A stretch of 64,000 nucleotides of DNA from a virus (IMGVR_UViG_2700989400_000004:6939-70938); one strand, 5' to 3'; numbered from the stretch's first letter, positions 21,972 through 60,234 are shown. The notes: generated by a model not told the origin, from the letters alone. Program-made: numbers and translations.

Positions 21972-22004
21972 AATTCCCCCTATAAATTACATTTTGTATA
22001 CATC

Positions 22005-22030
22005 TTTACGCGCTTCTACGCGAAAAATGA
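22005..22030 (-). promoter_or_regulatory. conserved ~26-nt element upstream of M (copy 1 of 2)
   Basis: TTTACGCGCTTCTACGCGAAAAATGA here vs TTTACGCGTTGCTACGCGGAAAATAG at 35175-35200 upstream of portal; both followed (minus orientation) by SATGTATWCA then the start codon. Confidence 0.35.
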
Positions 22031-22140
22031 GAACTTCATCACAAGAATTATAACCAGTTTACAAAATGGCTTCACACAGGACGCAACAAGATGTATACAG
22101 AAAGCAAGAAGAAAAGCAGTACCAACAAAGGAGGCCCAAG

Positions 22141-22308
22141 ATGAAACGCAACGATAAACACTACGCGGTCGTAATGCTTAATAACGCATTTGAACAAGTA
22201 GAAGTGGCGATCGTTAAAGGCTTTGATGATGCATTCAAAATGGGCCAGTTCTACATGAACGTGAAGGAAAACGAATACCGGGATTTCTACCTGAAAGCGG
22301 TCAACTAA
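22141..22308 (+). CDS. hypothetical protein (moron, 55 aa)
   Basis: Strong AGGAGG SD 8 nt before ATG at 22141. Confidence 0.4.
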   Translation: MKRNDKHYAVVMLNNAFEQVEVAIVKGFDDAFKMGQFYMNVKENEYRDFYLKAVN

Positions 22309-22325
22309 GGATGATGGGGTGAGCT

Positions 22326-22580
22326 ATGAAACTGGTAGCGATTGATAAAAATTTGAAGGTACAGAAAAACGCGCAGGACCGGATCATCAAAAAGGGTAAG
22401 GCTTTATTAAATGCTTTCCTGAAAAAAGAAGCTCACCCCAAAAAGTTACGCGATGGTTACGGTTATAAATTTGATATCAACCCCGATTGGCGGTTATTCA
22501 GCGATGATTTGAAGGTGTGGTTAATTATCGAGCATCATTATTATAATGTTAAATGTGGGGTTAAGGGGGCGCATAAATGA
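22326..22580 (+). CDS. hypothetical protein (moron, 84 aa)
   Basis: GGGGTGAG SD; lysine-rich protein-like ORF. Confidence 0.45.
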   Translation: MKLVAIDKNLKVQKNAQDRIIKKGKALLNAFLKKEAHPKKLRDGYGYKFDINPDWRLFSDDLKVWLIIEHHYYNVKCGVKGAHK

Positions 22581-22814
22581 GATGGCGTGAATTACATAGC
22601 TACGGCATCCGGTTTTCCCTGGTTGTCCTGAAAGATTGGTTTAATCGCCAGGTGGCAAACGATGCGTTAATCCCGTTTGCTGATAACAAGCCTTATAAGC
22701 GCGATGGGGTGAGATATGGAAGATGATAAATTTACATGGCGGGAGATCTGGAATATTTGGCAGGTAATTTTCGGAAGGGGATATATTGCGCGGAATGGTC
22801 GATTGTAGAGGTAA

Positions 22815-22997
22815 ATGATGATTATTCATGAAACGGAAGAATGTCGGCGGATTAATCTTAGTATTGAGTATGACGAAAGATTATGGCTTGAAAGCGACTG
22901 CGAAATAATCGTAATAGACAAAAAGCAAGCCGCCGAACTGATAAGCGCATTACAGCTTTATGTAAACAACGAATTTAAAAATGACGAAGTTGAATAA
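22815..22997 (+). CDS. hypothetical acidic protein (moron, 60 aa)
   Basis: GAGGT SD; followed by terminator. Confidence 0.4.
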   Translation: MMIIHETEECRRINLSIEYDERLWLESDCEIIVIDKKQAAELISALQLYVNNEFKNDEVE

Positions 22998-23003
22998 AGA
23001 AAA

Positions 23004-23040
23004 CCCCCAGCTTTCGCCGGGGGTATTATTTTATTTTTTG
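23004..23040. terminator. bidirectional terminator between moron island and tape-measure gene
   Basis: CCCCC…GGGGG hairpin followed by tattattttattttttg. Confidence 0.4.
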
Positions 23041-25916
23041 CGCGGTTGTAACATGCCACCGGGGCGTGTGCTTTGTTCCCTAACTACCCCCATAGCCACG
23101 CGTTTCATTGTGTCTTCAAGTCTGCGGCTATCCTCATCACTAAAACCGTTTGTCGTTTGAACGGTAATACTAACAGGCATGTTGATGCTGCCACCACCGC
23201 CCAAGTCGCGGTTAGGAGTAATACGCCCACCTTCACCGGGGATTATGTACTGTTTCCCGCCAGTAGTGGTAAACAGCTCCGGTTTACCGTGCTCACCAAC
23301 CCTATAAAGATTGCCGCCATTAACCGCACCGCCGTTGTAGCGTCCGCCACCGAAAATGGACGTCGCCAGCGACATGATTGCAGACAATGCCGCCGCACCA
23401 GCCGCCGCCCAGCTACCGCCAGTTGCCGCCGCCGTCGCCGCCGCCGCCGGGGCCGCCGCCGCTGCAATCTGACCTTGCGCCGCTACCGCGCCCGCCGTGG
23501 TGCTGGCTTGCGTTGCCTTGCTCTGACTTTCCATCATGATTTGGTCGGCTATCCAGTTTGCTGCAATCTGAGATAAGCGGTTGCCTACCGTGCCGAGAAT
23601 GTTGCTACCCAGGTTAGCAAACATCTCGCTTAGGGATTGTGTGCCGTTGAGCAATCCGGTAATGGCGTTACCCATGCCGCTTGTTAAGCCGTTGACGCAA
23701 TCGCCGATAAGCGCGTTAGTGTCGCTTTGCGCTTGCCATTGCTCCCACTTAAGCGCGGTTAGCTGTTGTTCATAGGCTAACTCTTCCATTTTCAATTGGG
23801 CCTGTGTAGCGCCTAAATCAGTGAGCATTTGCTTTCTGATAGTCCATTCATTTTGCAACTGCTGAATAGGGTCTACCTGGCCTTTTTTCTTGTCTTCATC
23901 AGAAACAAGGCTATCCCATTTGGCTTGTTGTTCTTCCTCGCGTAGCTGTTTCAGCGTGTCAGACAACGCCTTGCTTGCGCCCTCCTTCGCGGCTGTATAT
24001 TCCAGATAAGTGATCTTACCTTGCTTGTACGCTGCATCCAGGGCTTTTTGTTCTTCGCCAAGTTTACGCATAGCGGCGGCGTCTTTGTTGTACTGGTCGG
24101 AAATATTTAAGCCTTCATCGCCTAACTTATCCCAATCGGATTTTTTCGACTTCTTGCCCTTCCCGTCCTTGCCGCCACTGCCACCGCTGCCGCTTCCCGT
24201 TCCGGTTGGTTTCGGCGGAACATATGTACCATTAATACGGGCTTGTGCTTCGTCGGCTTTCTCGTTGGCTTTTTCAAGGTTTTTATTAGCCGTGTCTAAC
24301 TTACCTTCTAAGGTCTTCTGAGTATCCCCGGCGACACCTAGCGCCGCTTTTGCAGGTCCGGCAATTTCTGGATCATCACTCTGCGCTAATTTTTCCAGGA
24401 TGGCGCGGTTTTTCACCATGCGATCCAGTTCGGCTTTTGCCTTCCGGGCGTTTTCCTCAATGTCTTTGAGTTGTTTGTTTATCTCAATCAAAGCCGCTTC
24501 CAGTTCATTTTTGCTCATATCGTCGAACGACATAGCCAATTCGTCGATTTTGGCTTTTGCGTTGGCGGCTTTCTCTTCAGTGCTTTCCATGTTAAGGATA
24601 AGCGTACCCAGGCAGATCGCAGCGGTCATGATTGCGCCAGCGGGGCCACCAAGTAACCCTAACGCGCCATTGAAGATCCGCATCCCGATGCTGGCGGCTT
24701 TTGCTGCTGTACCGGACGCAACGATTGCCGCGTTAGCCGTGGTGGCAGCGGTGCGCATAGTCGTGTAAGCGGCGGCGGTTTGCGCTTGCGCTACACGGAG
24801 GCGAGCAAGCGCGGCGGTGTGGGCGTTTGTACCCTGCGCGGCCTGGTAGTGGGCGCGGGCCTCCCCTTCTGCCTGCAATGCTGCTTTAAGTCCGGCGGCG
24901 GCTGTGTGTAGCTGCTGGCGTGCCAGGTTGGCTTCTGCTGCTGCCTGCTGCGCGGCGGCCTGTGCTGCTTTCTGGTTGGCGGCTGCCAGCCGGATGTTTT
25001 CCGCCGTTGCCTGGATGATGCCACCTAACGCCCGTCCACCCATTACAGCACCAAGTGCAATGGCGGAGGCGGTTACAACGTCCAGGTTTTCAGATAGGGT
25101 GATCAGCGTGCTGTTAAACGCGTTAATCCCGCTACGGATCACAGAGTTTTCACCAAAATACTTAGTCGCGTTGTTGGTGGCAACTGTGAAGGCATCCGAC
25201 ATAGTGATCGCCATATTGTCGAACTCTTTATCTACTTCGGACTTCATCGCCCGGACCGCTGCGATAATTATATCTTTCGTGATCTTGCCGTCCTTCGCCA
25301 TTTCACGCAATGCGGTACTGGATACGCCCATTGATTTTGCGATACCTTCCGCCAGGCGTGGCGCGTTCTCCATTACGCTATTGAATTCATCGCCGCGCAA
25401 TTCACCAGATCCCAAGGCCTGGGCCAATTGTCTGATCCCGCCTTCCATTTCGCTTGCGGATGCGCCGGACACCTGAAAGGATTTGTTAATCGTTTCCACG
25501 ATGCTTGCCAGGTCACGCCCGCTTAGTCCGCTGTCACGCGTTGCGCGTTCCAATTTGGAGTAAAGCGCGGCGGTCGCATCCAGTGGTGACATTGATTTCT
25601 GTGCGGCCTTAAAAACCCGGTTTGTAACTTCTTCCAGTGATTCATTTGACCGGACGGAGTTAACCAGCTTGTTGTTTACTTCTTGCCAGGCGTTGGCGTA
25701 CTCAATGATCTTTCTTGTCACCAATGCCGCACCAACCGCGCGGGCAACCGTGGATAGGCTCGCCAGGGATTTACTTGCCTTATCAGCGGCGGTGTCTACC
25801 CGTTGCAGGTCTTTTTCCATCGCTCCGGTTGCCTTGTCTACTTCTTTCTGTGCAACCAGTAGCGATCCGGTTTTGGCGTCGATCGTGTATTCAATCGCGC
25901 CTACATTTTTAGCCAT
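23031..25916 (-). CDS. tail tape measure protein
   Basis: ~960-aa coiled-coil Ala/Gln-rich ORF with Gly-rich segment; ATG at 25916 (MAKNVGAIEY…) with CGGAGA SD. Confidence 0.8.
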   Translation of the reverse strand: MAKNVGAIEYTIDAKTGSLLVAQKEVDKATGAMEKDLQRVDTAADKASKSLASLSTVARAVGAALVTRKIIEYANAWQEVNNKLVNSVRSNESLEEVTNRVFKAAQKSMSPLDATAALYSKLERATRDSGLSGRDLASIVETINKSFQVSGASASEMEGGIRQLAQALGSGELRGDEFNSVMENAPRLAEGIAKSMGVSSTALREMAKDGKITKDIIIAAVRAMKSEVDKEFDNMAITMSDAFTVATNNATKYFGENSVIRSGINAFNSTLITLSENLDVVTASAIALGAVMGGRALGGIIQATAENIRLAAANQKAAQAAAQQAAAEANLARQQLHTAAAGLKAALQAEGEARAHYQAAQGTNAHTAALARLRVAQAQTAAAYTTMRTAATTANAAIVASGTAAKAASIGMRIFNGALGLLGGPAGAIMTAAICLGTLILNMESTEEKAANAKAKIDELAMSFDDMSKNELEAALIEINKQLKDIEENARKAKAELDRMVKNRAILEKLAQSDDPEIAGPAKAALGVAGDTQKTLEGKLDTANKNLEKANEKADEAQARINGTYVPPKPTGTGSGSGGSGGKDGKGKKSKKSDWDKLGDEGLNISDQYNKDAAAMRKLGEEQKALDAAYKQGKITYLEYTAAKEGASKALSDTLKQLREEEQQAKWDSLVSDEDKKKGQVDPIQQLQNEWTIRKQMLTDLGATQAQLKMEELAYEQQLTALKWEQWQAQSDTNALIGDCVNGLTSGMGNAITGLLNGTQSLSEMFANLGSNILGTVGNRLSQIAANWIADQIMMESQSKATQASTTAGAVAAQGQIAAAAAPAAAATAAATGGSWAAAGAAALSAIMSLATSIFGGGRYNGGAVNGGNLYRVGEHGKPELFTTTGGKQYIIPGEGGRITPNRDLGGGGSINMPVSITVQTTNGFSDEDSRRLEDTMKRVAMGVVREQSTRPGGMLQPRKK

Positions 25917-26046
25917 AGCGTTGATCTCCGTTTTTGTGATCTGTGTAACTATTTTATACAAAATGGCTTTGCTTTAACGACTCCATTTTGTATAAAGAAG
26001 CCATAGGGAATAGGTAGTTAAACAAACAAGTTAAGTGGGGTGGGTT

Positions 26047-26229
26047 ATGAACGTATACGAAGCCATCAGAAATATTAGAAATATCGAGAAAAATGTAGGT
26101 AACGAGGCGGCGCAAGAAGAATGCAAAATGTACATGAAGAAGCTACCACGCCGTGAACAATTTGTTTTGGGTGGCCCTAGCCTAGCGATGGAATTCGCAA
26201 GATTAAGAAAAGAAATGCTCAATAACTAA
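26047..26229 (+). CDS. hypothetical protein (moron, 60 aa)
   Basis: GTGGGGTGG SD; charged helical peptide upstream of lipoprotein gene. Confidence 0.4.
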   Translation: MNVYEAIRNIRNIEKNVGNEAAQEECKMYMKKLPRREQFVLGGPSLAMEFARLRKEMLNN

Positions 26230-26247
26230 TATTTAACTGGGTGAAAC

Positions 26248-26985
26248 ATGAAAAACGTAATTAAAGCGGCTCTTATTGGTGTTATGGCTTTCGGTCTTGT
26301 AGGTTGCGCACCTTCATATTCAGAGCAAGTAAAAGCAATAGAAAAAGGCGTGCTAATGCTGGATAAAACGGGGGTTAACAAGGATGCATGGAAAGTAAAA
26401 GCAGATGATTATGTCGCCGATTGCAACAACCTTAAGAGATACAAAGGAAAAACAGGTGAAACCGCCGTACTATTATGCGAACTAATCATCAAAGAAGATG
26501 AACTAACAGAAAGCGGACTATATACAAGCGCGGCTAACCTCGGCGTCGATATAGCGGGCCTTTATGATGTACTAAGTAATAAAAATTCAGCCGCTGCATT
26601 ATCAGCCGAACGTGTAGCAAAACTTGTGATAAGTGCTAATAAGTCAGCATTTCGCAATAGACAACAAGTTATAGAAAATGAATGCCGCGGCTTTATGGAT
26701 AAAAACTTTAAAGGCTGGAGTGAGTTAAACCCTATAGATGACGAAATTTATAATAATTGCCGGAATGCCGCAATGTTCTCTGATGAAAGCAAAAACAGAA
26801 TGGGGAGCATAATTTCTACAACGCTCGCATATAGAGTAAGACACCTCGATCAAAAAACAAAAACAAATGTATTAACTAACGCATTCATAGCAGTTCAGGC
26901 AGGCTGGAGTATAGGGAATGGATATCACGCCGTAAAACCGACTCCGGCAGAACTACAAGCGATTGCGCTACGCGATGCAAAGTGA
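26248..26985 (+). CDS. lipoprotein (moron, 245 aa)
   Basis: Signal peptide plus lipobox MKNVIKAALIGVMAFGLVGC; GGGTGA SD; opposite strand to tail operon; followed by strong terminator. Confidence 0.6.
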   Translation: MKNVIKAALIGVMAFGLVGCAPSYSEQVKAIEKGVLMLDKTGVNKDAWKVKADDYVADCNNLKRYKGKTGETAVLLCELIIKEDELTESGLYTSAANLGVDIAGLYDVLSNKNSAAALSAERVAKLVISANKSAFRNRQQVIENECRGFMDKNFKGWSELNPIDDEIYNNCRNAAMFSDESKNRMGSIISTTLAYRVRHLDQKTKTNVLTNAFIAVQAGWSIGNGYHAVKPTPAELQAIALRDAK

Positions 26986-26992
26986 CACAAAC

Positions 26993-27017
26993 GCCCGGTT
27001 AATTCCGGGCTTTTTTC
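26993..27017 (+). terminator. intrinsic terminator after lipoprotein gene
   Basis: Perfect GCCCGG-TTAATT-CCGGGC stem-loop followed by T6. Confidence 0.55.
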
Positions 27018-27691
27018 TGTTTTAATTTTTTCATTCTTTCCAGTGCCTTTCTTGCGGCCTGCATCCCATCGTCATAAGCCTTTTTATCTATGGCGGCATC
27101 TGGTCGTCTTTTCTCGTTTTTCGCTTCTGGCGGCGTTTTAGCGCGTACAGCGGCCCTATATCCGGTCATGGTCATGGCCCATGCTTCTGATTCAGATAAT
27201 CCCAGGTGAGCAACGGCGGAATAAACGTAATCAAGAACATCGAACGTTGATTTATATTCCCCTTCCTGCTTATCAGTTTGTTGTTTGCTGCCGGGAATAT
27301 CACCGATTAAACCGTGGTACATGCAATGCTGCGCCAGCGTGATGACGTCCTGAGTTGGCAGCAAGCCAGGGCGTAAACGTAATTTACCCGCCGGAGTAAA
27401 TCTACATTCGCCCACCAGCGGCCCTATTTCGCTTTCTGCGCATGATTTCAGGATGTGTATAGACGTTTGCACCAGTTCACCATAACACCGCGCCAAAACC
27501 CGTTTACGAAGCTCTGGATCGGTAGGGAAGATCTTCGGATACCTTCCACCATGAACAATGGCAAAGTAGCGCACCAGTTCGGAATCATCACCGATCCGCG
27601 CCATAGCTGCGAAGGATGGATTAAATATATATGCGCGACCATCAACCTTAATTTCAAATTGTCCAGTTCGAACATGAATCATAATCATCAC
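26999..27691 (-). CDS. putative tail assembly chaperone
   Basis: 230-aa ORF immediately upstream (in transcription order) of tape measure; basic C-terminal tail. Confidence 0.4.
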   Translation of the reverse strand: MMIMIHVRTGQFEIKVDGRAYIFNPSFAAMARIGDDSELVRYFAIVHGGRYPKIFPTDPELRKRVLARCYGELVQTSIHILKSCAESEIGPLVGECRFTPAGKLRLRPGLLPTQDVITLAQHCMYHGLIGDIPGSKQQTDKQEGEYKSTFDVLDYVYSAVAHLGLSESEAWAMTMTGYRAAVRAKTPPEAKNEKRRPDAAIDKKAYDDGMQAARKALERMKKLKQKKARN

Positions 27692-27727
27692 CCTAAAAGA
27701 AAGGGGCCGTTTGGCCCCGTTGCGTTG

Positions 27728-28240
27728 TTATTCGACTGGTGTCTCTTGTTCAGTTCCGGCGTCTTCCTCTGCCGGGAGATCATCGACGGTTACTTGTCCG
27801 GCGCTGGAACATTCGATCGACCAGGTGCAAGCGTCATCATGCGGATCGTCTTCCTCAAAGTTGGTGCAAAGGAATGGACCCTCGGTCACGTCCACCGGGG
27901 AAACCATTTTCAACCACACATAAGGCTGTCCACCAGTGGCTTCGCCTGGATTAATGGTATGACGTTTCAATGCCTTCTGGTTGTAGATCTCTTCGGTACG
28001 GGATACGCCATCACCGGAGAAAGAAACAGATTTGTAAGTTACCAATGATTCCTTAGTGTAATCAGCGGATTTGTCAGCGGTGGCATCTGCGACTTCCCAT
28101 TCGACGGAAAGCGTTTTACCGCGCATCATGCCAAGCTCTAAATAATCTTCATCCGCTGGCTTCGCGTTAGGGCAAGCAATAGCGAAAAACACCGCGACGT
28201 CGCGCCCTGTGAATGCGCCTTTCTGGCAAGTTGTAGACAT
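27728..28240 (-). CDS. putative major tail (tube) protein
   Basis: 170-aa ORF in major-tail position; acidic C-terminus. Confidence 0.45.
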   Translation of the reverse strand: MSTTCQKGAFTGRDVAVFFAIACPNAKPADEDYLELGMMRGKTLSVEWEVADATADKSADYTKESLVTYKSVSFSGDGVSRTEEIYNQKALKRHTINPGEATGGQPYVWLKMVSPVDVTEGPFLCTNFEEDDPHDDACTWSIECSSAGQVTVDDLPAEEDAGTEQETPVE

Positions 28241-35152: not shown

Positions 35153-35174
35153 AATGTTTACTCCTGAATACATG

Positions 35175-35200: not shown

Positions 35201-35229
35201 AAAAATTCGTGAGGATTGTGAGGCAGATT

Positions 35230-46689: not shown

Positions 46690-46852
46690 AATTTGATCTC
46701 CTTCTGTTAGGCGATGTGTTTCCGCATTTCAGCGGGGCCGGATTTTTAAAGAGCATTTCGTTTGATTGCAGTATACAAAATGGATGCACCTGGACAAAGT
46801 AAAAAGCGCCATTATGTGACGCTAATCACACAATGACGCCATTTTGTAAACT

Positions 46853-47617
46853 TTAGTCCGGTAAAACGCGGTTAAGCGTCGTCCGCGTGATGGCCCGGTC
46901 GTTAGCCAGGAATACAGCACGGGCGAAGCCGCGCGGCGTTAGTGAGCGGATCATCTTAGTGCGCTTCGACTTTCCGCCTAACTTCGCGTGCTGCTTACTG
47001 TCTTCCCATTCATCCGGCATTGGTACAGGCCGGAATAGCGGCTGCTTAAATCCATTCCCACACCAAATACATGTTTTCTTCGTGTAGGCGTCGCGGGCGG
47101 CGATGTATTCCGGGAAAGCGGGATGTTTATCATCTTCCGGCAGGTAGCCACCATAAGCGCACGGATTGAAGATAAAATCCGGTTTACGCCATAACGTTGA
47201 TAGTGCGCCTACCGGATTTTCTACCATCCACGGCACGTTATACATATTCGCCAGTTTTTCTACCAGTTTTGCGTTATGCGCCGCCTTCACCTGGAAGTCA
47301 GGGTCTTTTTTCCGTTTATCAGCGAACCAGCGAGCGCCTGAAACGGCGAGATTGTCGCATGGAGGAAAGCCCAGGATAATGTCAGGATCTGGATATACAG
47401 ACAATTCAGGGGAGAACATTACCAGGAAATGGCTATCAATCCAGACATTGACATATTCAATATTGGGATGAATTATTTTTACCCCGTCATAATCCCCGTG
47501 ATTAGCGCCGTCATAGTTGAAGCAATAACATTTATAACCAGCGTCCGCCCAATCTTTAACGGCGTACCCGCTGCCGTCATATAGCGACCACACCACCCAA
47601 TTTCTAAGCCCGCTCAT
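46853..47617 (-). CDS. putative DNA methyltransferase-like protein (C5-cytosine MTase-like motifs, atypical)
   Basis: Motif I-like SLYDGSGYA, motif IV-like GFPPCDNLAVSG (PC-D not PC-Q), motif VI-like MVENPVG; short (254 aa). Confidence 0.4.
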   Translation of the reverse strand: MSGLRNWVVWSLYDGSGYAVKDWADAGYKCYCFNYDGANHGDYDGVKIIHPNIEYVNVWIDSHFLVMFSPELSVYPDPDIILGFPPCDNLAVSGARWFADKRKKDPDFQVKAAHNAKLVEKLANMYNVPWMVENPVGALSTLWRKPDFIFNPCAYGGYLPEDDKHPAFPEYIAARDAYTKKTCIWCGNGFKQPLFRPVPMPDEWEDSKQHAKLGGKSKRTKMIRSLTPRGFARAVFLANDRAITRTTLNRVLPD

Positions 47618-50658: not shown

Positions 50659-52617
50659 TCAACCAGCAAGCCAGGATTAAATCAATCAGCCACATGATTA
50701 AGCCTCCATAACCGCGTAATCGAAGCGCCCTAAATACATCTCGATGCCGATCATCTCGACGCCCTGGACGTCCGCGCCCCATACAGTTACGTGATAAGCG
50801 TCCTCCCGCCATTGTTCATGGCTTAGCACTTCGTTTGCTGGATATTTCCGCCCCGCGACGTAAGCGCCCGGACCTACGCCACCTTCTACGCAATACAGCA
50901 TGATCTGGTTTTCCATATCGCACCTCGTTAATAGCAAACTGCGTACATACAGATCCCGTTGTTAAAGGCTTTGATGATCATGTCGATGACCATGTAAACG
51001 AGCATTACAGCCGCCGCTGGGACAAGGATCGCGAATAGTCCGCCTAACGTGCGCTCAATAATGAAATGCGGGTTTACTTTGCTTTTGTGGTTACGTTCAA
51101 AGTTTGTCATCTTCCCGCCCTCCGTGCTGTATACCTTTCGACTTCAGTTTACAAAACGGATACAGCGGGACAATACAAAATGTATATTTATGTGATCGGT
51201 ATCACGCGATTAATGCAGTACACGTTTTTCCGGGTGAGGCATTGGCTGTGCACGTTTCCGCGCTTCATTCAGCACTGACGCCACCGCCCGGACGCCAAAA
51301 TCATTAGCCCGCATATCATTGCCGACCATCTCGCCATAAATAAGCGGCATAAATTGCCTTGCGTTATCCTCGATGTGTCCATTTTCAACCGCTTTCTGAA
51401 GTACGCCAGCCTCAAGGATATCGCGCATCAGTTCACGGATTGTATATAATGAAGCACTACCCATCGCCCCTTCGCCCAGCGGGACAATCACCGCGCTACC
51501 ATATGCAAGCGGATCCAGTTCTTCCGGTACTGGTACACGTCCAAAATCTTCTTCCATGCGTTTTACGAAAGTAAGGCAGAAGACGTAACGCGCTACCGAT
51601 GTTTTCTCTTCCGCATTCAAAGATACGTAATCGCGCATTGACGCATCCATTACAAGATCAGCAATTTGTAGCGCCAGGTTTAAATCCCCGTCATACACGC
51701 CCGCGTCCATATCTTTAATGACTTCGTGGTAGTTCTTTGTTTCCACTTCATGAAAACATGCGTCCTCTGTGTAGCGAGTGATTAACATGCCTTCGCTGCC
51801 AAGTGAATAAGCTGTTTTGATGTCGTTCATGATATTTATCCTTATAACGGGTGATGCCATCGCATTTCAGTTTCTGAATTAAACGGGATACCTTCGCTTG
51901 AAAGGAATAAATCACGCTCCCGTTTCAGTTCTTCCGGGCTTATTTCTATTTCATCAATCTGACCGAACGATCCCGGCATCATTCTTTTTAAATCAGATAG
52001 CGGACGCATAAGGCCGCAACCGCGTAACAGCATATCGACCGCGAATTGTCTACGTCCGGCGGCGTCATTAAAGCGCCGTGCCCAGGGCACAACCACGATC
52101 CGGCGTTCGAATTCGATAAATAGTGATAGCTTGTTTGTTTCGCTATCATATGCTTTATGGAATTTAATTTTCATTTAACACCTCGACGTATTGCTCAAGA
52201 TGCCATTTACCCACCTCGTCGTCTTCTTCATCAAATAATGTTACTTGACCCCCTGGCCCGAAAGAAAAGGCAGCGACAATAAATTTATAGCCATACCACG
52301 TGCGGATCTTTTCGCCGCCTTTCAGGTCTTTAACTTTCACTAATTTTATAGCCATACGCCAAACATCCCATTCAATCCGGCGAACAACTGCCGCCAGTGG
52401 TCTTCAACATAAGCCCGGAAAGGCTTAACGCGAACATTGCGGGCCTTCAGCGTGATACTGTCAAAATAACGCGGCTCGATCAGCGTACCATCAAGGTATT
52501 GAACGAGGATCGGGCGCTCAAAGTCGCTACATGTTTTATTCAGCACGACCAGACCGGGGTCACTACGATATGCGGGCAAAACAACGAGATCACCCGCCTT
52601 TGCATCCCATAACATCA

Positions 52618-52737: not shown

Positions 52738-52745
52738 AATTAGCC

Positions 52746-52859
52746 TCACATATTAGTAATCAGTTTGATGATCGCCACCGTAATATAAAGCGATACGCTG
52801 AGATACAGCACCGCCACCGCTACCGCCGCCAGCAATGCGGCAATTTTTGCGAGATTCAT
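52746..52859 (-). CDS. micro-protein, single TM helix (37 aa)
   Basis: MNLAKIAALLAAVAVAVLYLSVSLYITVAIIKLITNM; strong GGAGGG SD; ATGA overlap with upstream stop. Confidence 0.3.
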   Translation of the reverse strand: MNLAKIAALLAAVAVAVLYLSVSLYITVAIIKLITNM

Positions 52860-54443: not shown

Positions 54444-54592
54444 TATTTGATCTCCTTCGCTGTTAACACTACGTATAAGGCTTTATTCGCGGCGCTCCAC
54501 ATTTCGGCATCGTGAAGCATTTCCGCTACTGCCAGTTTGAATTGAAGCGCCTGAATAACCATAATGTCACCTCCGATTGTATACATTTTGTA

Positions 54593-54883
54593 TTAATGGT
54601 ATCGAACTTTATCTAACGGGATCTCCCAAAGCTGGCGCGGCTGCGTTGCGTGGAAGTAGTTGCCGCTTTCATTTTCCTGATACCATTTTGTCGCGCCCTT
54701 GCGACGTTCTTTAACGCTATTTGATTTGCATCTTTCCTCATTTGCAAAGCGAATAGCTTTTTCCACTTTATCAATCTTCTGTATGTGCGGGCCTTCGTCT
54801 TGTTCGGCTGCCCGCTTCATCCGGCGGCGCTTCCGTGCATTTAATTTGCTCTCACAGTTACCGTAAATGATCTTCGCATTCAT
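54593..54883 (-). CDS. putative N-like antitermination protein (arginine-rich motif)
   Basis: First gene of the leftward operon after the repressor; ARM-like RKRRRMKRAAEQ; AAGGAG SD. Confidence 0.35.
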   Translation of the reverse strand: MNAKIIYGNCESKLNARKRRRMKRAAEQDEGPHIQKIDKVEKAIRFANEERCKSNSVKERRKGATKWYQENESGNYFHATQPRQLWEIPLDKVRYH

Positions 54884-55321
54884 AATCTTTTCTCCTTAGT
54901 TAAAATCATGTTTGCTACATTTCAGTAGCGACCAGATTGTTAAAGAGAATGGCTTAACATCGTTCAACTAATCCCGCAATCATCGCCGTTTCCGGTGTGA
55001 CACCACTCAATCCAAGTGATCTGACTCGTCGCCTTGCGTGCGGTTTCGTGGGGGATGTAACGCTTTAAACACCCCATGCGCCTTGTTATCAGTGCCGCTT
55101 TCGGTCCCACATCGGGGAGTTACTCCACGGTTGACAAGGTGTTAAGCCTGATTTTTAAAGTGCCTGGAAGGTGTTTTTGTTTCCTGTCTCCTTCCTTTGA
55201 CTCGCAATATACGCCCTGTGATATGTCGAGTCAATCCATTTTGTATACTTTTTTAAAATATTTTCTATCTCATTGATATTTAAATGATAAAACCCGTTCT
55301 CGGTTTACATTTTGGTGCTTT

Positions 55322-55348
55322 CTGGGCAAAGAAAAGCCGCCATCCGGC
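55322..55348 (-). terminator. intrinsic terminator after repressor gene
   Basis: GCCGCC-ATCC-GGCGGC hairpin with T-run on minus strand, 10 nt after repressor stop. Confidence 0.45.
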
Positions 55349-55357
55349 GGCTAATGT

Positions 55358-56005
55358 TTATGGCAGATTTACGATCTTCGCGTCCACCACCACGCCAATA
55401 ATTTTTGATTCAGGATTTAGCGGGATTGGTGGATACAACGGATTAAGCGAACGTAAAAGCCTTTGACCTCCATCAATAATCAACTGTTTAAACGTCGGCG
55501 TTTGCCCTTCCTCCAATTGGGCTATAACCAGTTTGCCGTCAATAGCTGGCGCGTGTGGATCAACAAGTATCATCGTTCCCGCCGGGATGCTCAATCCTTG
55601 CGGCGCGTTCATCGATTCACCTTTTGCAACCAGCCAATAACTATCATCCGAACAAATCACGCTAGTGTTAACGTGCGGTAATGATGCGCGTTTTGCTTCT
55701 TCCATGTAGTTTCCTGCGTCTTTCCAGTCAATCACCGGATAACGCCCTACGTCGAGCGGTGGCGCTCCCGGCAGTGTATTAGAAAGTGAATCATCAATAA
55801 CCATCCCATCATGTGTGACCGTAAACTGCCGACGACCAAGCGCCCGCATGATCCGCGCAATATCTTCCAGGTTAGGCTCACGACGACCATTTAGCCAGTG
55901 TGATAAGCCGCCCTTTGTGATCCCCATGAGATCCGCCAATGAATCCTGGCTCATACCTTGCGCCCGCATGAGTTGTTTAGCTAAGTCATACCATTTTGTT
56001 TTCAT
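55358..56005 (-). CDS. cI-like repressor (HTH + LexA-type S24 peptidase domain)
   Basis: N-terminal HTH (…QDSLADLMGITKGGLSHWLNGRREP…) and C-terminal autocleavage domain (…VAKGESMNAP…AGTMILVD…); divergent from replication operon. Confidence 0.8.
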   Translation of the reverse strand: MKTKWYDLAKQLMRAQGMSQDSLADLMGITKGGLSHWLNGRREPNLEDIARIMRALGRRQFTVTHDGMVIDDSLSNTLPGAPPLDVGRYPVIDWKDAGNYMEEAKRASLPHVNTSVICSDDSYWLVAKGESMNAPQGLSIPAGTMILVDPHAPAIDGKLVIAQLEEGQTPTFKQLIIDGGQRLLRSLNPLYPPIPLNPESKIIGVVVDAKIVNLP

Positions 56006-56313
56006 GTCGCTACCCTATCGCCCTAAAAAGTTTGATGCAAGTCACAAAATGTATTTTTCAAGTCTTGACCTAAAAACGCCATTCTGTAAACTTGCAGACA
56101 AGGTAAAGCCAGACTTGCAAGGATGCAAGAAAAAAGATAAGGGAATAGCACAAAAAGGCGCATACCTTAAAAGCTCTTTAAAAACCCGGTGTCGCTGCGA
56201 AGCGAAAAACAAATATCACGCAACGGCGGGATCTGTTGAGCGGTCAATCACTGCTATCTAATGCTAATGGGATACCCGCCCGCGCGTTCATTTTAACCAT
56301 AGGAGAAAAATCA
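56006..56313. promoter_or_regulatory. divergent immunity promoter/operator region
   Basis: 308-bp gap between divergent repressor and rightward operon; repeated CTTGCAAG-type palindromic half-sites (56036-56130); no cro-sized ORF found. Confidence 0.5.
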
Positions 56314-56568
56314 ATGAGTATGCACATGATGACTGAAGCCTGGAAAGTGGAACTTAACAGCCCGATTCAAAAACTTGTCTTAATGGCTTTGGCTGAAAAG
56401 GCGGATAACCGCCGCCACGCCAGGGTGTCACACCAAGAAATCGCAAAAATGTGTGAACTTCCTGTAAATACGGTAATGGTTGCTATCGACGGATTAACGC
56501 ACAAAGGATTTATTTGTAACCCTTACCCGGTAAATGACGTTTACCTGGTAATGCTGCCGGAGGAATGA
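56314..56568 (+). CDS. HTH DNA-binding protein, first gene of rightward operon (Cro/CII position)
   Basis: 85 aa from MSMHMMTEAW…; AGGAG SD; HTH-like …HQEIAKMCELPVNTVMVAIDGL…. Confidence 0.5.
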   Translation: MSMHMMTEAWKVELNSPIQKLVLMALAEKADNRRHARVSHQEIAKMCELPVNTVMVAIDGLTHKGFICNPYPVNDVYLVMLPEE

Positions 56569-56571
56569 TCC

Positions 56572-57639
56572 ATGAAGTGGTTTAAGCATGATAGCGATGC
56601 GAACCGCGATGAAAAACTTCAAAACGTTTTGCTCGATTATGGTCTGGAAGGATACGGTCTTTATTGGTACTGCCTCGAACTAATCACTTATGACGTAGAT
56701 CAGCATAATCTCACTTTCGACCTTCGACATGACGCGAGAATCATCGCGCGAAATGTCGGTTCGACTGAAAAACGTGTAGAAGAAATGATGAAATACTTCA
56801 TCGAAATTGGTTTATTTGAATGTTCTCAAGGCCATATAACATGCTTAAAGTTATTGAAAAGGCTGGACCAATCAATGACTTCTAAGAGTGGTTACAGAGC
56901 TGCTATAAATGCAGCAAAAGAACAATTCAAATTAGAAAAGTTAATCAACCCAACGCCAAAAGGTCATGATAGGGTCATGACCGGGTCATGGCAGGGTCAT
57001 GAATTAGAATTAGAAGAAGAATTAGAAGAAGAAATAGAAAAAGATATATACACTTCGTGTATTAGCGAAAATGAACAAAAAACGGTCAATCAGGGGGGTG
57101 ACTTTCAGATAAGCGAAGCCGCCTTGCGTTGTCTGGCTTTCTACAACGAAAAAGCAGGATGCAAATGTCGTGACGCTAAACCATTCATCGAACTACTGAC
57201 AGAAACAAAAACACGTAAGGCATATACGGAGGAAGAGATCACATTAGTAATTGAGTGGGCTTTAACACAATGGCATAGCCGGAGTGGAGTACCTAAGCCT
57301 ATCAACATTTGCCGGGTAACTAAGTTTGATGGGTATCTGGCTGATGCTGAACAATGGCGAAGAGTTACAGCTACTGTTAACGCTGCTGTCGTGGTATCAG
57401 CATTTAACCAGACATTTGACGGCCTGTTACCGCCTGCCGAACTGGATCGGGATTTGGAACGTAAGATCTATGCGTTCACTGACTACCTGAAAGACAAAAG
57501 CATCACTGGCTTTATCGCTTACTTTGAAGCGTTCAAAAACACGGCTTCAGATTTTTACTTCGGCAATGGCTTTACCGCGACACTTGATTTCCTACTTAAA
57601 CCAAAAACGCTACGTGACACGCGCGCGGGCGTTCTTTGA
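56572..57639 (+). CDS. replication initiator / replisome organizer (O-like)
   Basis: N-terminal MKWFKHDSDANRDEKL… typical of phage replisome-organizer N-domains; conserved phage replication C-terminal region; contains iterons. Confidence 0.75.
   Translation: MKWFKHDSDANRDEKLQNVLLDYGLEGYGLYWYCLELITYDVDQHNLTFDLRHDARIIARNVGSTEKRVEEMMKYFIEIGLFECSQGHITCLKLLKRLDQSMTSKSGYRAAINAAKEQFKLEKLINPTPKGHDRVMTGSWQGHELELEEELEEEIEKDIYTSCISENEQKTVNQGGDFQISEAALRCLAFYNEKAGCKCRDAKPFIELLTETKTRKAYTEEEITLVIEWALTQWHSRSGVPKPINICRVTKFDGYLADAEQWRRVTATVNAAVVVSAFNQTFDGLLPPAELDRDLERKIYAFTDYLKDKSITGFIAYFEAFKNTASDFYFGNGFTATLDFLLKPKTLRDTRAGVL
56961..57050 (+). repeat. putative replication origin: four iterons plus AT-rich tract inside O-like gene
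   Basis: GGGTCATG repeated four times at 11-bp spacing (56962-57001), then aattagaattagaagaagaattagaagaagaaatagaaaaag. Confidence 0.6.
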
Positions 57640-57772
57640 CTATCCATTATTACCAAAAAACCAAAATTACCCACAAAACAAGCTCACCAGCGAGCTAAAT
57701 CGCATGGGGTGCTACACTTGCTTACCTTTTTGCGATTAGCTCGTTAGAAAGCGATTGAGGGAGGATTTAGCT

Positions 57773-57874
57773 ATGAACGGTAAACGCATGTTCGCCCTGG
57801 CTTTCGCGATCGCGATGGCTATCGCTGTTAACGTGATGCTGTTCGGCGGGTTGTACCTGCTTGCGCATCCATAA
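57773..57874 (+). CDS. small hydrophobic membrane peptide (33 aa)
   Basis: MNGKRMFALAFAIAMAIAVNVMLFGGLYLLAHP; GAGGGAGG SD; preceded by long imperfect inverted repeat (57691-57743). Confidence 0.4.
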   Translation: MNGKRMFALAFAIAMAIAVNVMLFGGLYLLAHP

Positions 57875-58025
57875 CTACCCAGCCTGATTAAATTCGATTT
57901 TAAGCCACTTTTTAGCGCCACTGACGCAATAAGACACTGCAACATGTGCAAACGTGTTACGCGGTGGGATTTTGCGTTGTAGCGCGTCTGAGGCGTTATA
58001 TAGAAAATTAAGAAAGGAGGTATAT

Positions 58026-59081
58026 ATGATTGCTACTTATCATATGAAACTCAATTGTAAGGACACGCAATTACTGTCTGTTAATAATCTGGTTTCTGAA
58101 CTTAAGATTGATAGACTTAAATCATTTGTTAAATATTCTGATCTTTACGGATTTGAGGAATACAAGGATTTTATTATTGATGGTGATGATGTGTATATCA
58201 CACCTATAACGTTTATTAGATTCGTTACACCTGGTAAATATAGACATTATGAATATAATGAAAATTGGGTTAAGCCAGTTATTGAATCTTGTGGATTAGT
58301 TGACTTGCAAGATGTCTTTAATAAATATTCAAATAATACCAAAAAAGATAGTCCTTACGCTTATAATTATATTTTATGGTGTAACAACTATGTTGAAACG
58401 AGTGATACTCCTGGTCGATGTTCTGTGTATGTGTCAAAAGAAGATGCTGAAAAGTATAAAAAATGGTTGTTCGTTACTCGCGGAGTATCAATAGAAAAAC
58501 TATGGGTAAGGTTGTTCCATTCAAGCGATATTGCAGATCCAGATACGTTTTTAGCTGAACACCTCAATAATGATGAGTTTACCATTGATTTAAATATTGA
58601 ATATTTTATAGTTAAAACAAATTATGGATATGAAAGGTATATTAGCGATAAGATAGCAGAAAAGTATCATATATGGGGTGAAAGTAAAGGGCTTAGTAAT
58701 AATTTTGAGTGCGGGAATTATAACGACATAGAAAACTTTATTAAATTAAAAAGCGACAAGGATGTAATTGAGGAAATAAAAAAGGAATGCGACGCGAAAT
58801 TATCAGAAATGAGCGGTCATTGTAAAAATATGATTAGAAAGCGTTATGAACACGCTGGTTTAACTATGTATGAAAAACTAAAGGGTGTTAAATTAATAAG
58901 GCAATATCCTGTTAATGTTGCTGGCAATAAGTATTTTATCGATGGCTACGATCCTGTGAATAATGTTGCTGTAGAAATTGATGAATCACATCACAAACGG
59001 CAAGTAAAAAGCGATGCGATAAGACAAAAATGCATTGAAGATTATTTGGGGTGCAAGTTTTTTCGTTGTGCTATATCCTGA
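58026..59081 (+). CDS. AT-rich gene: protein with C-terminal restriction-endonuclease-like domain (candidate defence/abortive-infection protein)
   Basis: 351 aa from MIATYH…; perfect AGGAGG SD; visibly AT-rich versus flanks; C-terminus …YFIDGYDPVNNVAVEIDESHHKRQVKSDAIRQKCIEDYLGCKFFR… resembles DUF559/Vsr-type endonuclease fold. Confidence 0.6.
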   Translation: MIATYHMKLNCKDTQLLSVNNLVSELKIDRLKSFVKYSDLYGFEEYKDFIIDGDDVYITPITFIRFVTPGKYRHYEYNENWVKPVIESCGLVDLQDVFNKYSNNTKKDSPYAYNYILWCNNYVETSDTPGRCSVYVSKEDAEKYKKWLFVTRGVSIEKLWVRLFHSSDIADPDTFLAEHLNNDEFTIDLNIEYFIVKTNYGYERYISDKIAEKYHIWGESKGLSNNFECGNYNDIENFIKLKSDKDVIEEIKKECDAKLSEMSGHCKNMIRKRYEHAGLTMYEKLKGVKLIRQYPVNVAGNKYFIDGYDPVNNVAVEIDESHHKRQVKSDAIRQKCIEDYLGCKFFRCAIS

Positions 59082-59115
59082 TGTATACAAAATGTAAACC
59101 GGAGGAAATAACGTT

Positions 59116-60234
59116 ATGTCACAAAGAAAGATCAGCGATGAACAACTGATCGCTGAGTACGAGAAGGGGAAAACTTACAAGCAAATAGCCGAAGAATATG
59201 GAATGGCAAAACGCAACGTCGAACGGCTGGGCGCACGGCTGGCGAAGCGCGGTTTAATATCCACACGCCGCGCGCCTGGTTTTGGTGTCAATGGTGAATC
59301 ATTGCTCGTTGATAAGGATGGCAATGTGATTATGCGCTGGATTAAAACAGCACGTGATCGCGATGAAATGGAAAGGCTAATGCAAGCGGCTTGCGATGCA
59401 TTCACTGAAGAGATACCCCGCGCGGAGGCCGTGCCAGTGCCTGAGATTGATTTCCAAAAAAGCCTGGCCCTTTATCCGGTGTTCGATCTTCATATCGGTG
59501 CACTTGCGCACAAGGCGGAATGCGGCGAGAGCTACGACACCGGGATCGCTGAACGCGTACTAAATGATTTCTTCGACTACGCGGTAGGCACTGCGCCAAT
59601 GTCTGAAAAGGCTGTTTTGCTGTTGGGTGGGGATCTACTTCATTCTGATGGGATGATCCCGGTTACACCAACAAGCGGTCATATTCTTGATCAGGATAGT
59701 CGCTACGCAAAACTTGTTTACGTGGCGATCCGGTCGGTCCGGCGGGCGGTCGGGAAGATGTTACTAAATCATAAGGACGTCGAGATCCAGGTGCTTAGCG
59801 GAAATCATGATCAATCGGGGATGATTTGGCTACGTGCGGCGCTGGCGGCTTTTTACGAAGATGAACCACGCGTGACGGTTGATGTGTCCCCTGCTATCGT
59901 CCACCACACGCAGTACGGCAAAACATTCCTTGCCTATCATCACGGGCACACTATCAAAAAACCCGAAAATTTGTTGGCGGCCTGCATCTCTGACTGGCGG
60001 GAGGATTTCGGCAAGTCGGCGGCGGTTTACGCCCACTGCGGGCACTGGCACCACCAACGGCTAATTGAATCATCGTTAGGCGTTGTTGAGTATCACGGCA
60101 CGTTAGCGGGTAAAGACGCTTATTCAACGAATGGCGGCTGGCGGTCGCGGCGGCTGGCGGCGGTAATAATTTACAGCCCGGATTATGGGGAAATCGGGCG
60201 CTTTGTTTATTACCCTGAATATCCCATTTTGTAA
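59116..60234 (+). CDS. HTH domain fused to calcineurin-like metallophosphoesterase
   Basis: N-terminal HTH (…KTYKQIAEEYGMAKRNVERL…); phosphoesterase motifs DLHIG, GGDLLH, GNHD, GHWHH; CCGGAGG SD. Confidence 0.6.
   Translation: MSQRKISDEQLIAEYEKGKTYKQIAEEYGMAKRNVERLGARLAKRGLISTRRAPGFGVNGESLLVDKDGNVIMRWIKTARDRDEMERLMQAACDAFTEEIPRAEAVPVPEIDFQKSLALYPVFDLHIGALAHKAECGESYDTGIAERVLNDFFDYAVGTAPMSEKAVLLLGGDLLHSDGMIPVTPTSGHILDQDSRYAKLVYVAIRSVRRAVGKMLLNHKDVEIQVLSGNHDQSGMIWLRAALAAFYEDEPRVTVDVSPAIVHHTQYGKTFLAYHHGHTIKKPENLLAACISDWREDFGKSAAVYAHCGHWHHQRLIESSLGVVEYHGTLAGKDAYSTNGGWRSRRLAAVIIYSPDYGEIGRFVYYPEYPIL

Follow-up and report, generated by a model that had tools for sequence, protein, structure and literature searches.

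A prophage of the mEp021/mEpimmI family, integrated in E. coli abgT, lies in the 64,000-nucleotide stretch of DNA that we analysed (the window) and repeats the same nine nucleotides in front of many of its genes. What are these repeats for? In a collection of human-gut coliphages, mEpimmI phages reportedly matched the lambdoid phages in frequency, and all share one immunity (PMC11893012). The first-pass annotation had offered three readings of the repeats, namely a phage-specific promoter element, a regulator-binding site, or a conserved linker at the boundaries of mosaic modules.

The element is enriched and conserved in the prophage

An exhaustive search of the whole 64 kb for both forms of the 9-mer, TACAAAATG and CATTTTGTA, found exactly 11 copies, at the same 11 positions that had been picked out by eye and nowhere else. 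Dinucleotide shuffling gave a mean of 0.87 copies (maximum 3 in 100 runs) and the mononucleotide expectation is 0.63; the claimed enrichment thus holds against a composition-matched background (11 copies vs ~0.9 expected). As the annotation had also noted, the copies avoid genes: each is intergenic or at a gene boundary, within a prophage part (11395-64000) of which only ~6% is non-coding, and neither exact search nor a matrix scan found the motif in the 11.4-kb host flank. The two sequence contexts that it described, TGTATACAAAATGTA and TTTACAAAATGG, are both real. Its placement of the copies 20-80 nt upstream of start codons is roughly right for most sites, but their register with promoter-like hexamers (see below) is the better description.

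The 9-mer makes up positions 3-11 of a 15-bp pseudo-dyad, (T/A)(A/T)TAC-AAAAT-G(T/G)A(T)(T). Six further sites with one or two changes, not listed earlier (13671 and 56080 on the - strand, 13703, 51150 and 56043 on the + strand, and 20016, a perfect dyad), bring the total to about 17 sites between 13.7 and 60.2 kb, spread over 47 kb. One-mismatch variants overall are mildly enriched (29 vs ~23 expected). Generic AATAC-N5-GTATT dyads with any centre show no enrichment in the window (39 vs 32±5), so the centre matters in this lineage, and a simple two-arm dyad model leaves the role of the conserved AAAAT centre unaccounted for.

Over 15 sites in four relatives, the 9-mer is 94% conserved, compared with 74-82% for its flanks, and in a distant syntenic lineage with patchy nucleotide identity of 65-70% high-scoring dyads still lie in intergenic regions. 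To keep the scans non-circular, we built a weight matrix solely from 20 candidate operators of other lineages, excluding the window. This foreign matrix found 11 sites of at least 12 bits in the window (1.77±1.28 expected) and six of at least 16 bits (0.15 expected), as well as 5-9 sites of at least 14 bits per 50 kb in the relatives; sites of the TTTAC...GG class score low with it (2.9-7.3 bits). An IMG/VR scan for TACAAAATGG-N12-40-CCATTTTGTA yielded no new lineage. Its matches were family members with the pair beside the tape-measure gene, low-GC chance matches, and one unrelated contig that matched through AAAATGGTTAC units arranged as a terminal inverted repeat.

Dyad arms co-vary with the recognition helix of Rep

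The rep gene (55358..56005, - strand) encodes a CI-like repressor of 215 aa, which we propose as the protein that binds the motif. Like repressors of the lambda-CI/LexA type, it has an N-terminal Cro/C1 HTH (Pfam HTH_3, 2.7e-13) and a C-terminal S24 self-cleavage and dimerisation domain (Peptidase_S24, 3.1e-20), and multiple dyads flank its gene (56041, 56076 and 55233 in the window). Rep is a full-length homologue of lambda CI (PDB 3BDN, E=1e-20, residues 15-208) and is 93% identical to Rep021 of mEp021, the operators of which are not yet defined in the literature (PMC11893012).

Rep homologues at 41-56% identity sit in otherwise different prophages. In the 100-kb Klebsiella phage P12620-1, whose Rep is 51% identical with a nearly identical HTH, the sole two exact copies of the motif flank rep (0.74 expected). 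Five more prophages of this lineage share the upstream copy, identically placed, and the downstream copy is present in all four of these whose flank is long enough. The lineages that share Rep and exact TACAAAATG may also share the ancestry of the whole immunity cassette, so that the independent observations would be fewer than the loci. In lineages at 56, 53, 45 and 41% identity, two or three WATAC-N5-GTATW dyads, spaced by about 33 and 26 bp, lie between rep and the divergent gene, and three of these four lineages have further dyads (1-3 downstream) at the promoter past the rep terminator. Near-perfect or perfect dyads among the best sites include TATACAATATGTATA, AATACAAAATGTATA and, in the Klebsiella-type lineage, AATACGTTATGTATT.

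Two lineages from Shewanella and Vibrio have altered helices and retain the three-site 33/26 layout, with arms that read TGTAC...GTACA and ATTAC...GGAAT. The helix TKGGLSHW goes with TATAC, TPGGMGHW with TGTAC and SQSGIAHW with ATTAC, and the varying residues align with recognition-helix positions of lambda CI. Operator and recognition helix thus change together across heteroimmune relatives; as a control, the immunity region of a repressor with a P22-C2-type helix had no match to the matrix.

Could these sites instead belong to another factor found alongside Rep, perhaps a nucleoid protein of the host or a lytic regulator of the Cro type? Two proteins reading the same operators would be nothing unusual, as Cro and CI do so in lambda, and the palindrome CTTGCAAGGATGCAAG and TGCAAG repeats indicate a second specificity in the region. 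However, Rep is the sole DNA-binding protein common to the lineages compared, no Cro-type gene is conserved across those that share the dyads (the divergent neighbour of rep has an O-like replication-initiator domain in the window and is a small HTH_3 protein in other lineages), and the dyad arms vary in step with the Rep helix. With hosts that range from Escherichia to Shewanella and Vibrio and no copy in the host flank, a host factor is improbable; to our knowledge, none of the sites for IHF, Fis, CRP, TyrR or DnaA fits the invariant positions of the motif. We consider another binding factor very unlikely.

Rep is instead the predicted regulator, and of the three readings offered earlier the regulator-binding site is the one strongly supported by this co-occurrence and co-variation. 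Very probably, TACAAAATG is the core of a 15-bp operator recognised by Rep and used for dispersed promoter silencing, an operator that appears to be unreported so far. The TAC...GTA arms would be read by the two HTH domains of a Rep dimer on either side of the A/T-rich centre, and TATACAAAATGTATT and the dyad at 20014 are among the predicted Rep-binding sequences.

Register of the sites with predicted promoters

Thirteen of the 17 sites accompany a sigma-70-like promoter (at least 8 of 12 hexamer positions) and have their centre at its -41 or -16, as against 11-13% of random or other intergenic positions. Part of this register is inherent in the motif, whose GTATA arm itself contributes the TATA of the -10. 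All promoters are consensus predictions from hexamer matches. Sites at -16 overlap the -10 and sites at -41 overlap the edge of the -35; weak putative -16 operators of 3.9-5.2 bits (22084-22098, and the partner expected at the promoter downstream of rep) were excluded from the site list.

In the rep-proximal intergenic region of the window, the 33/26 triplet of other lineages is missing; there are just two sites, both of variant sequence and separated by 35 bp. GTCAC-AAAAT-GTATT (56041..56055, + strand; 13.1 bits with the matrix from other lineages), in the rep-proximal half of the space between rep and the replication operon, is kept in four relatives, and is similar in its degenerate arm, GTCAC, to the middle operator of lineages L040, L041 and L042 (GTGTC). 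TTTAC-AGAAT-GGCGT (56076..56090, - strand), in place of which the phage MagusPhagus has an exact TACAAAATG, is centred at -16 of a predicted promoter, TTGACC-16-TAAACT (56065-56092, + strand), that reads into the replication operon and a boxA-like element at 56173. The palindrome mentioned above (56114-56129) and the TGCAAG repeats lie in this same region. On the other side of rep, TATAC-AAAAT-GGATT (55233..55247, - strand; 16.8 bits) is centred at -41 of a strong predicted promoter, TTGACT-17-TATATT (55206-55234, - strand), and covers the first 2 nt of its -35. This promoter would drive the operon of an N-like antiterminator; the arrangement recurs in lineage L038 and the Klebsiella-type lineage, and the expected -16 partner is weak (3.9 bits).

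Further candidate operators lie along the minus-strand early operon. AATAC-AAAAT-GTATA (54580..54594, - strand; 20.5 bits), between the N-like gene (54593..54883) and a small gene upstream of erf, is conserved in relatives, and the distant lineage L047 has one at the same junction. The tandem sites TTTAC-AAAAC-GGATA and AATAC-AAAAT-GTATA (51148..51186, + strand; 11.9 and 20.5 bits), with centres 24 bp apart, fall at -16 and -40 of a minus-strand promoter-like sequence, TTGTCC-16-TAAACT (about 51146-51173); a near-perfect CRP-like palindrome at 51191-51206, a separate element, adjoins one of them. TATAC-AAAAT-GGATG (46772..46786, + strand; 14.0 bits), at -16 of the minus-strand promoter-like TTGTCC-16-TATACT (46770-46797), is 18 nt upstream of a boxA-like GCTCTTTAAAAA (46743-46754). 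The latter corresponds to the published position of nutR2, nut positions being those described in a 2025 paper (PMC11893012) together with boxA-like matches. A predicted Rep-controlled promoter directly before nutR2 would explain why there are three nut sites, each behind its own repressor-controlled promoter. Nut sites and terminators were reportedly also mapped in a 2023 Arch Virol paper. Across an intrinsic terminator (stem 46805-46840, - strand) from this site, with centres 64 bp apart, TTTAC-AAAAT-GGCGT (46836..46850, - strand) is exactly conserved in four relatives, and the sequence between the pair varies.

Two sites in the replication operon are too near an RBS for a sensible promoter. 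TATAC-AAAAT-GTAAA (59084..59098, + strand; 16.8 bits) directly precedes the RBS of the gene at 59116..60234, and in relatives the element is flipped or varied, as TACATTTTG, TACATTCTG or TACAAAACG. TTTAC-AAAAT-GGGAT (60221..60235, - strand; 7.3 bits) directly precedes the RBS of a helicase gene (60253..61674), and mEp021 and mEp010 have an HNH endonuclease gene inserted beside it.

The remaining sites lie in the tail region. An inverted pair with centres 25 bp apart (25955..25994), between the tape-measure gene (- strand) and a plus-strand accessory cluster, places each operator at -41 of one and -16 of the other of two back-to-back promoter-like sequences with TATAAA as -10, and recurs in about 18 family contigs in IMG/VR. 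Between a minor tail gene (21618..21971, - strand) and a plus-strand accessory operon that includes a ParE-like toxin, two sites have centres 72 bp apart (21986..22072): TATAC-AAAAT-GTAAT (21986-22000; 17.2 bits) and TTTAC-AAAAT-GGCTT (22058-22072), centred at -41 of the promoter-like TTCACA-17-TATACA. The perfect dyad TATAC-AATAT-GTATA at 20014..20028 (20.1 bits), missed in the first reading, is at -16 of a predicted plus-strand promoter, TTGATC-17-TATATT (20002-20030), that reads into an accessory operon on the same strand beside tail gene L. It is present in all four relatives at 16.8 bits or more, and one gene in the mEp021 counterpart of this operon bears the annotation putative antirepressor. 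Finally, the inverted variant pair CACAAAATGG and CACAAAATGTA (13667..13715; centres 34 bp apart, 13.3 bits for the site at 13701) follows the terminator of the J tail-fibre gene, upstream of a side tail-fibre gene (11546..13630, - strand), and MagusPhagus has an exact copy of the motif at this position.

Might the motif then simply be part of the promoters, as an extended -10 (CATTTTG+TAnnnn) or an UP-element-like A-tract at -46 to -38 that serves host RNA polymerase alone? Its reverse-complement form always abuts a -10-like hexamer (TAAACT, TATACT, TATAAA or TATACA), the copy at 55237 spans -46 to -38 of the strong predicted promoter, and the sites are in register with promoter hexamers. However, most sites are without a usable -35 in the -10 orientation, where for most copies it matches at only 1-3 of 6 positions, and we rejected the motif as a stand-alone sigma-70 -10 element on this ground. 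Moreover, the G is at -13, not -14 as in an extended -10, and the UP-element consensus does not require the invariant T, C and G of the motif. The sites lack the fixed position and orientation of a sigma-70 element, occurring in two registers and both orientations, and a promoter element would have no reason to co-vary with a repressor helix or to form 33/26-bp triplets beside repressor genes in the Shewanella and Vibrio lineages. The earlier idea of a phage-specific promoter element thus keeps the overlap with the -35 edge or -10 of promoter-like sequences and loses the motif as a -10 of its own; that the motif works through polymerase alone is highly improbable.

Inverted pairs could also act in RNA, as A/U-rich hairpins for processing, terminator extension or a translational signal. 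The pairs do fold (z = -5.0 to -5.6 at 25945-26005, -5.4 at 46765-46857 and -3.0 at 21980-22075), and a number of single copies precede a Shine-Dalgarno sequence by 5-10 nt. We nevertheless rejected the hairpin reading, which is extremely unlikely: folding is limited to pairs, single sites being unfolded (z = 0.06 and -1.7), arms show identity only and never compensatory changes, both orientations occur within single operons, and arrays in untranscribed divergent regions and the link to the repressor helix would be left unexplained. A linker that promotes recombination between modules is extremely unlikely as well. In its favour, the 59084 site is the exact point where homology to all four relatives starts, the tape-measure pair stands out as conserved between flanks that have diverged, and the HNH gene is inserted beside the 60221 site in two relatives. 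However, most sites lie within continuous homology and only 5 of 37 intergenic breakpoints in the four relatives are within 25 bp of a site (5.5 expected).

Dispersed operators for Rep are thus the preferred reading. Observed, by comparison of sequences, are the enrichment, the conservation in excess of the flanks, the co-occurrence and co-variation with the Rep family, and the register with promoter-like hexamers; from these we infer Rep binding, promoter firing and the effect of each site, be it repression, activation or a block to elongation. In the lysogen, Rep at its operators would keep RNA polymerase from both main early promoters, one on each side of rep, and from a set of secondary promoters: the nutR2-associated one, an internal early promoter near 51150, those ahead of the plus-strand accessory clusters embedded in the tail region, and the back-to-back promoters upstream of the tape-measure gene. 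A more far-reaching role for Rep as a genome-wide organiser is unlikely: sites at -41, the class II or lambda-PRM geometry, would activate some accessory promoters while those at -16 repress, and CI-like higher-order contacts between the 17 sites would loop the prophage DNA into one network of repression. Were this true, plus-strand accessory genes (the ParE-like toxin module, the cluster with the mEp021 putative antirepressor, and exclusion functions) would be tied directly to the lysogenic state. We know of no CI-type repressor from an enterobacterial siphophage for which such behaviour has been described.

Dispersed operators in other phages

The analysis provides a concrete 15-bp candidate operator, a map of about 17 candidate sites and a set of predicted Rep-controlled promoters. 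Furthermore, helix residues and dyad arms that change together from Escherichia to Shewanella and Vibrio form a natural repressor/operator series, useful for studying the evolution of immunity specificity and as a source of orthogonal repressor parts.

Lambda CI has the same two-domain build as Rep, with a Cro/C1 HTH and an S24 peptidase, and in lambda OR and OL, as predicted here, multiple adjacent dyads cover the -10 or -35 of divergent early promoters beside the repressor gene. Centre spacings of 24-26 bp resemble those of lambda operators (23-24 bp), a site at -41 has the same geometry as OR2 at PRM, and Rep binding to neighbouring sites 24-25 bp apart would probably be cooperative, like that of CI in lambda. 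In contrast to lambda, the 15-bp site here combines a conserved AAAAT centre with a TAC-N5-GTA core, the early promoter-plus-nut modules number three, rep has no cro beside it, and instead of two operator clusters about 17 sites are spread over 47 kb, late region included. P22 C2 is the best-known named repressor among the tblastn matches, at about 42% identity that falls largely within the C-terminal domain. It shares with Rep a homologous S24 domain at the C-terminus and a similar general layout of the immunity region, but its recognition helix VSNVAISQWERSE and its operators differ.

Phage P1 has a single immunity repressor, C1, that acts at numerous promoters around the genome, each with an operator of its own; C1 is unrelated to the CI-like Rep and binds an asymmetric 17-bp site. 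The cluster A mycobacteriophage L5 has more than 20 repressor sites, operators and 'stoperators', across the genome in promoters and short intergenic spaces (PMC9283540), and the dispersal of about 17 sites in short intergenic regions here is L5-like. However, the L5 sites are asymmetric 13-mers to which the repressor binds as a monomer, by means of two DNA-binding domains, and their orientation follows transcription and is needed for function (PMC9283540), whereas the best sites here are perfect or near-perfect dyads, most are in promoter register and not placed as roadblocks, and Rep is CI/LexA-like, not like L5 gp71. Nor does orientation follow transcription: sense copies (55237, 54584 and 46840) and antisense copies (51174, 51150 and 46774) occur together in the minus-strand early operon, as do a sense copy (59086) and an antisense copy (60225) in the plus-strand replication operon. 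The dispersed-operator strategy itself is already known, and what is new here is the unusual dispersal of predicted CI-like operators beyond the neighbourhood of the repressor gene; a CI-type repressor with operators in the late region would extend the strategy of mycobacteriophages and P1 to lambda-like repressors.

A recurrent element in the prophage and its relatives

Positions 1–11394 of the window are E. coli chromosome, in which a small integrase/AntA/Icd/DUF927 island is followed by abgR-abgA-abgB-abgT, and the prophage runs from about 11395, at the 3' end of abgT, to the right end of the window with 83–87% identity to the mEp021/mEpimmI group. Published mEpimmI genomes number 48. This group of temperate, Nus-dependent coliphages, for which abgT is among the published attachment sites, carries, by the published account, a repressor of the CI type (Rep021), a Q-like protein and, with three nut sites, the N-like antiterminator Gp17 (PMC11893012), and a plasmid for Rep021 expression, pRep021, is reported there too. 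According to the same paper, which mentions no repeated 9-mer, the Rep021 operators are not yet defined, and a full-text literature search for the 9-mer with operator, repressor and phage returned nothing relevant. In the island beside abgR (1–5700), genes for a tyrosine integrase and a DUF927 protein accompany those for a small HTH regulator, an antirepressor of the AntA/AntB family and an Icd-like inhibitor of cell division, a set that recalls a phage satellite (P4-like or PICI-like); P12620-1, a Klebsiella phage, has a related island at 93–99 kb of its record.

An exhaustive count over the whole 64-kb window found 11 exact copies of the 9-mer TACAAAATG or its reverse complement CATTTTGTA (21990, 22060, 25957, 25984, 46774, 46840, 51174, 54584, 55237, 59086 and 60225) and none elsewhere. 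These are the same 11 that the first-pass annotation had picked out as rare by chance, and indeed, dinucleotide-preserving shuffles held a mean of 0.87 copies and never more than 3. The flanking bases do sort into the two contexts it had described, TACAAAATGTA and TACAAAATGG, several copies form inverted pairs and, on a rough gene map, every copy is non-coding or at a gene boundary, in keeping with the mostly intergenic placement claimed earlier. Six more sites carry the same element with one or two changes (13671, minus strand; 13703, plus; 20016; 51150, plus; 56043, plus; and 56080, minus), and the information content widens the core to G-T-W-TACAAAATG-K-M.

Relatives contain 10–13 exact 9-mers per 50 kb at orthologous positions. 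When 15 window sites were aligned to four relatives, the 9-mer was 94% identical to the window, compared to 74% for the distal upstream flank and ~81–82% for the immediate and downstream flanks, with a conserved block spanning about -4 to +10. This pattern of conservation indicates that the motif is under selection.

Association with the repressor Rep

The CI-like repressor of the prophage, Rep, is encoded on the minus strand (55358..56005), combines an HTH_3 with a Peptidase_S24 domain and has lambda CI as a full-length homologue (3BDN, E=1e-20). Its closest homologue beyond the mEp021/mEpimmI family is in Klebsiella phage P12620-1 (51% identity, helix-turn-helix almost identical). In 100 kb of this record there are only two exact 9-mers (0.74 expected), one 33 bp ahead of the rep start, the other ~100 bp past the rep stop, in DNA otherwise without homology to the window. 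The 9-mer also lies upstream of rep, at an unchanged position, in five prophages of the P12620-1 lineage (from Pseudescherichia, Citrobacter, Enterobacter and Trabulsiella), and all four with a long enough flank have it past the rep terminator as well. In these regions the true unit proves to be a 15-bp dyad such as AATAC-GTTAT-GTATT. In lineages with Rep at 56, 53, 45 and 41% identity, the DNA between rep and its divergent neighbour contains two to three of these dyads, typically spaced by 33 and 26 bp, and three of these four have further dyads at the promoter past the rep terminator, followed in one lineage by a boxA/boxB nut site. In Shewanella, the recognition helix TPGGMGHW goes with arms TGTAC...GTACA and in Vibrio SQSGIAHW goes with ATTAC...GGAAT, and both keep the three-site layout. 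No such site was found for a repressor with a P22-C2-type helix and a homologous C-terminal domain.

The divergent neighbour of rep differs between lineages. Here it is the first gene (56236–56568) of an operon, and its product is the N-terminal domain of an O-like replication initiator (HTH_36; PHROG 'replication initiation protein') rather than Cro; no gene of Cro type can be seen between the plus-strand promoter and nutL. Because the divergent gene is not conserved, Rep is the common factor. The 9-mer and dyads accompany rep across lineages and the arms shift with the recognition helix, which favours the regulator-binding site among the original proposals, and the motif most likely belongs to Rep as its predicted operator. 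That another protein binds it is unlikely, since no candidate is conserved across lineages.

A weight matrix derived from 20 operators of other lineages only, and hence non-circular, was run over the window. It gave 11 sites of at least 12 bits vs 1.77 ± 1.28 expected from Markov nulls (maximum 6 of 300), and six sites of at least 16 bits vs 0.15 expected. The best matches were the first-pass sites and a perfect dyad at 20014 (TATACAATATGTATA, 20.1 bits), while TTTAC...GG sites scored low with this foreign matrix. A 12.5-bit match inside the replication gene 56572..57639 (57047–57061, TATACACTTCGTGTA) could be chance or an origin-linked site. Sites of at least 14 bits number 5–9 per 50 kb in the four relatives, and dispersed intergenic dyads are also present in the P0007-type lineage (distant and syntenic, with patchy 65–70% nucleotide identity), whereas P12620-1 has no such site outside its immunity region. 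Dispersal is therefore a trait of this wider phage clade and not of the whole repressor family.

The P0007 lineage also has two tandem exact TACAAAATGG, 39 bp apart (L038 58–105 = L047 about 8554), directly ahead of a gene for an ANT-domain antirepressor, an arrangement which suggests direct control by the repressor of its own antirepressor. A match to the pair pattern in an unrelated viral contig (L022 12984–13030 / L028 9–55) was rejected as a coincidence, arising from a long inverted repeat of AAAATGGTTAC units at the contig end, possibly a hairpin end or an artefact of assembly.

Register with predicted promoters and nut sites

Sites are named here by the window coordinate of the 15-bp dyad or its enclosed 9-mer. 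Thirteen of 17 are centred at -41 or -16 of a sigma-70-like promoter (at least 8/12 hexamer matches), a register found for 11–13% of random or other intergenic positions. Part of this register is inherent in the sites, as the TATA of a -10 comes with the GTATA arm, and this overlap would also be the expected way of working of such an operator. Among the clearest cases, site 56076 lies at -16 of TTGACC-16-TAAACT, which heads toward a boxA-like GCTCTTTAAAAA at 56173, in the rep-proximal intergenic region, in agreement with the published nutL position. Site 55233 is at -41 of TTGACT-17-TATATT, the predicted promoter of the N-like gene, and covers the first two -35 bases. Site 46772, at -16 of TTGTCC-16-TATACT, precedes a second GCTCTTTAAAAA, at 46754, by 18 nt; this location corresponds to nutR2 and lies just past the terminator 46805–46840. 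nutR2 seems to have a predicted repressor-controlled promoter of its own just past terminator t4, which could be a reason for the family's three nut sites. Both boxA-like elements (46743–46797 and 56065–56184 regions) have the same promoter type upstream, TTGwCC-16-[CCATTyTG]TAwACT.

Elsewhere, TTGTCC-16-TAAACT has 51148 at -16 and 51172 at -40, sites 25955 and 25980, a pair separated by 25 bp, serve two back-to-back promoter-like sequences, 22058 is at -41 of TTCACA-17-TATACA ahead of a ParE-like toxin operon, and 20014 is at -16 of TTGATC-17-TATATT ahead of a plus-strand cluster beside tail gene L. Centre-to-centre distances of 24–25 bp recur. An RNA-level role for the motif would fit the paired sites alone; the proposal of a linker at mosaic module boundaries has no statistical support, and a pure promoter element fails on poor -35 quality and mixed register.

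A CRP-like near-perfect palindrome, TGTGATCGGTATCACG (51191–51206), is 8 bp from the 51172 operator, and GTGATC, which includes a Dam site, adjoins other operators too (25937–25943, 13676–13682), also in relatives. The toxin operon (22153–22580, plus strand) is an accessory operon within the tail gene cluster, where the ParE-like toxin (22326..22580; PF24732, 8e-12) is preceded by a 51-aa gene, presumably its antitoxin. The immunity region also has a second repeat, TGCAAG/CTTGCA, in five copies (56034–56129), including a perfect 16-bp palindrome CTTGCA-AGGA-TGCAAG (56114–56129) downstream of the plus-strand promoter's predicted start; it may be another regulator's operator.

Predicted mode of action and known systems

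As read from the sequence, repression by Rep dimers at these dyads is most likely. Dimers would bind the dyads, cooperatively at adjacent sites, setting immunity at the two promoters flanking rep and silencing, at the remaining sites, secondary promoters otherwise active within the prophage. Activation, by analogy with lambda CI at PRM, could take place instead at sites with a -41 register alone. The window's rep-proximal region has only two sites, both variants, 35 bp apart, and at the promoter downstream of rep the -16 position, where a partner site would be expected, holds only a weak one. Sites 59084 and 60221 are too near ribosome-binding sites for a sensible promoter and may be roadblocks, looping partners or relics. 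A generic any-centre dyad is not enriched in the window, so the invariant AAAAT centre needs explaining, for example by indirect readout.

What lies between the replication gene and the helicase varies among relatives (57954–59081 in the window; L001 6080–6583; L003 5304–5894). In the window it is a 375-aa protein whose C-terminus is DUF559/endonuclease-like; in mEp021 it is a zinc-ribbon protein, and an HNH endonuclease is inserted directly beside the operator upstream of the helicase. A homing endonuclease occupies that operator site in mEp010.

The 9-mer repeat is real and explained as a predicted operator, new in sequence but belonging to a repressor of known kind, with an unusual genome-wide distribution. 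Dispersal is the only feature shared with mycobacteriophage stoperators, whose site asymmetry, monomeric two-domain repressor and orientation dependence (PMC9283540) are absent here. The system is predicted to work like lambda CI and its operators, with which it has in common an HTH/S24 repressor, dyads in several copies around the repressor gene and arms that vary with the recognition helix across lineages; the overlap with early promoters is a predicted one.
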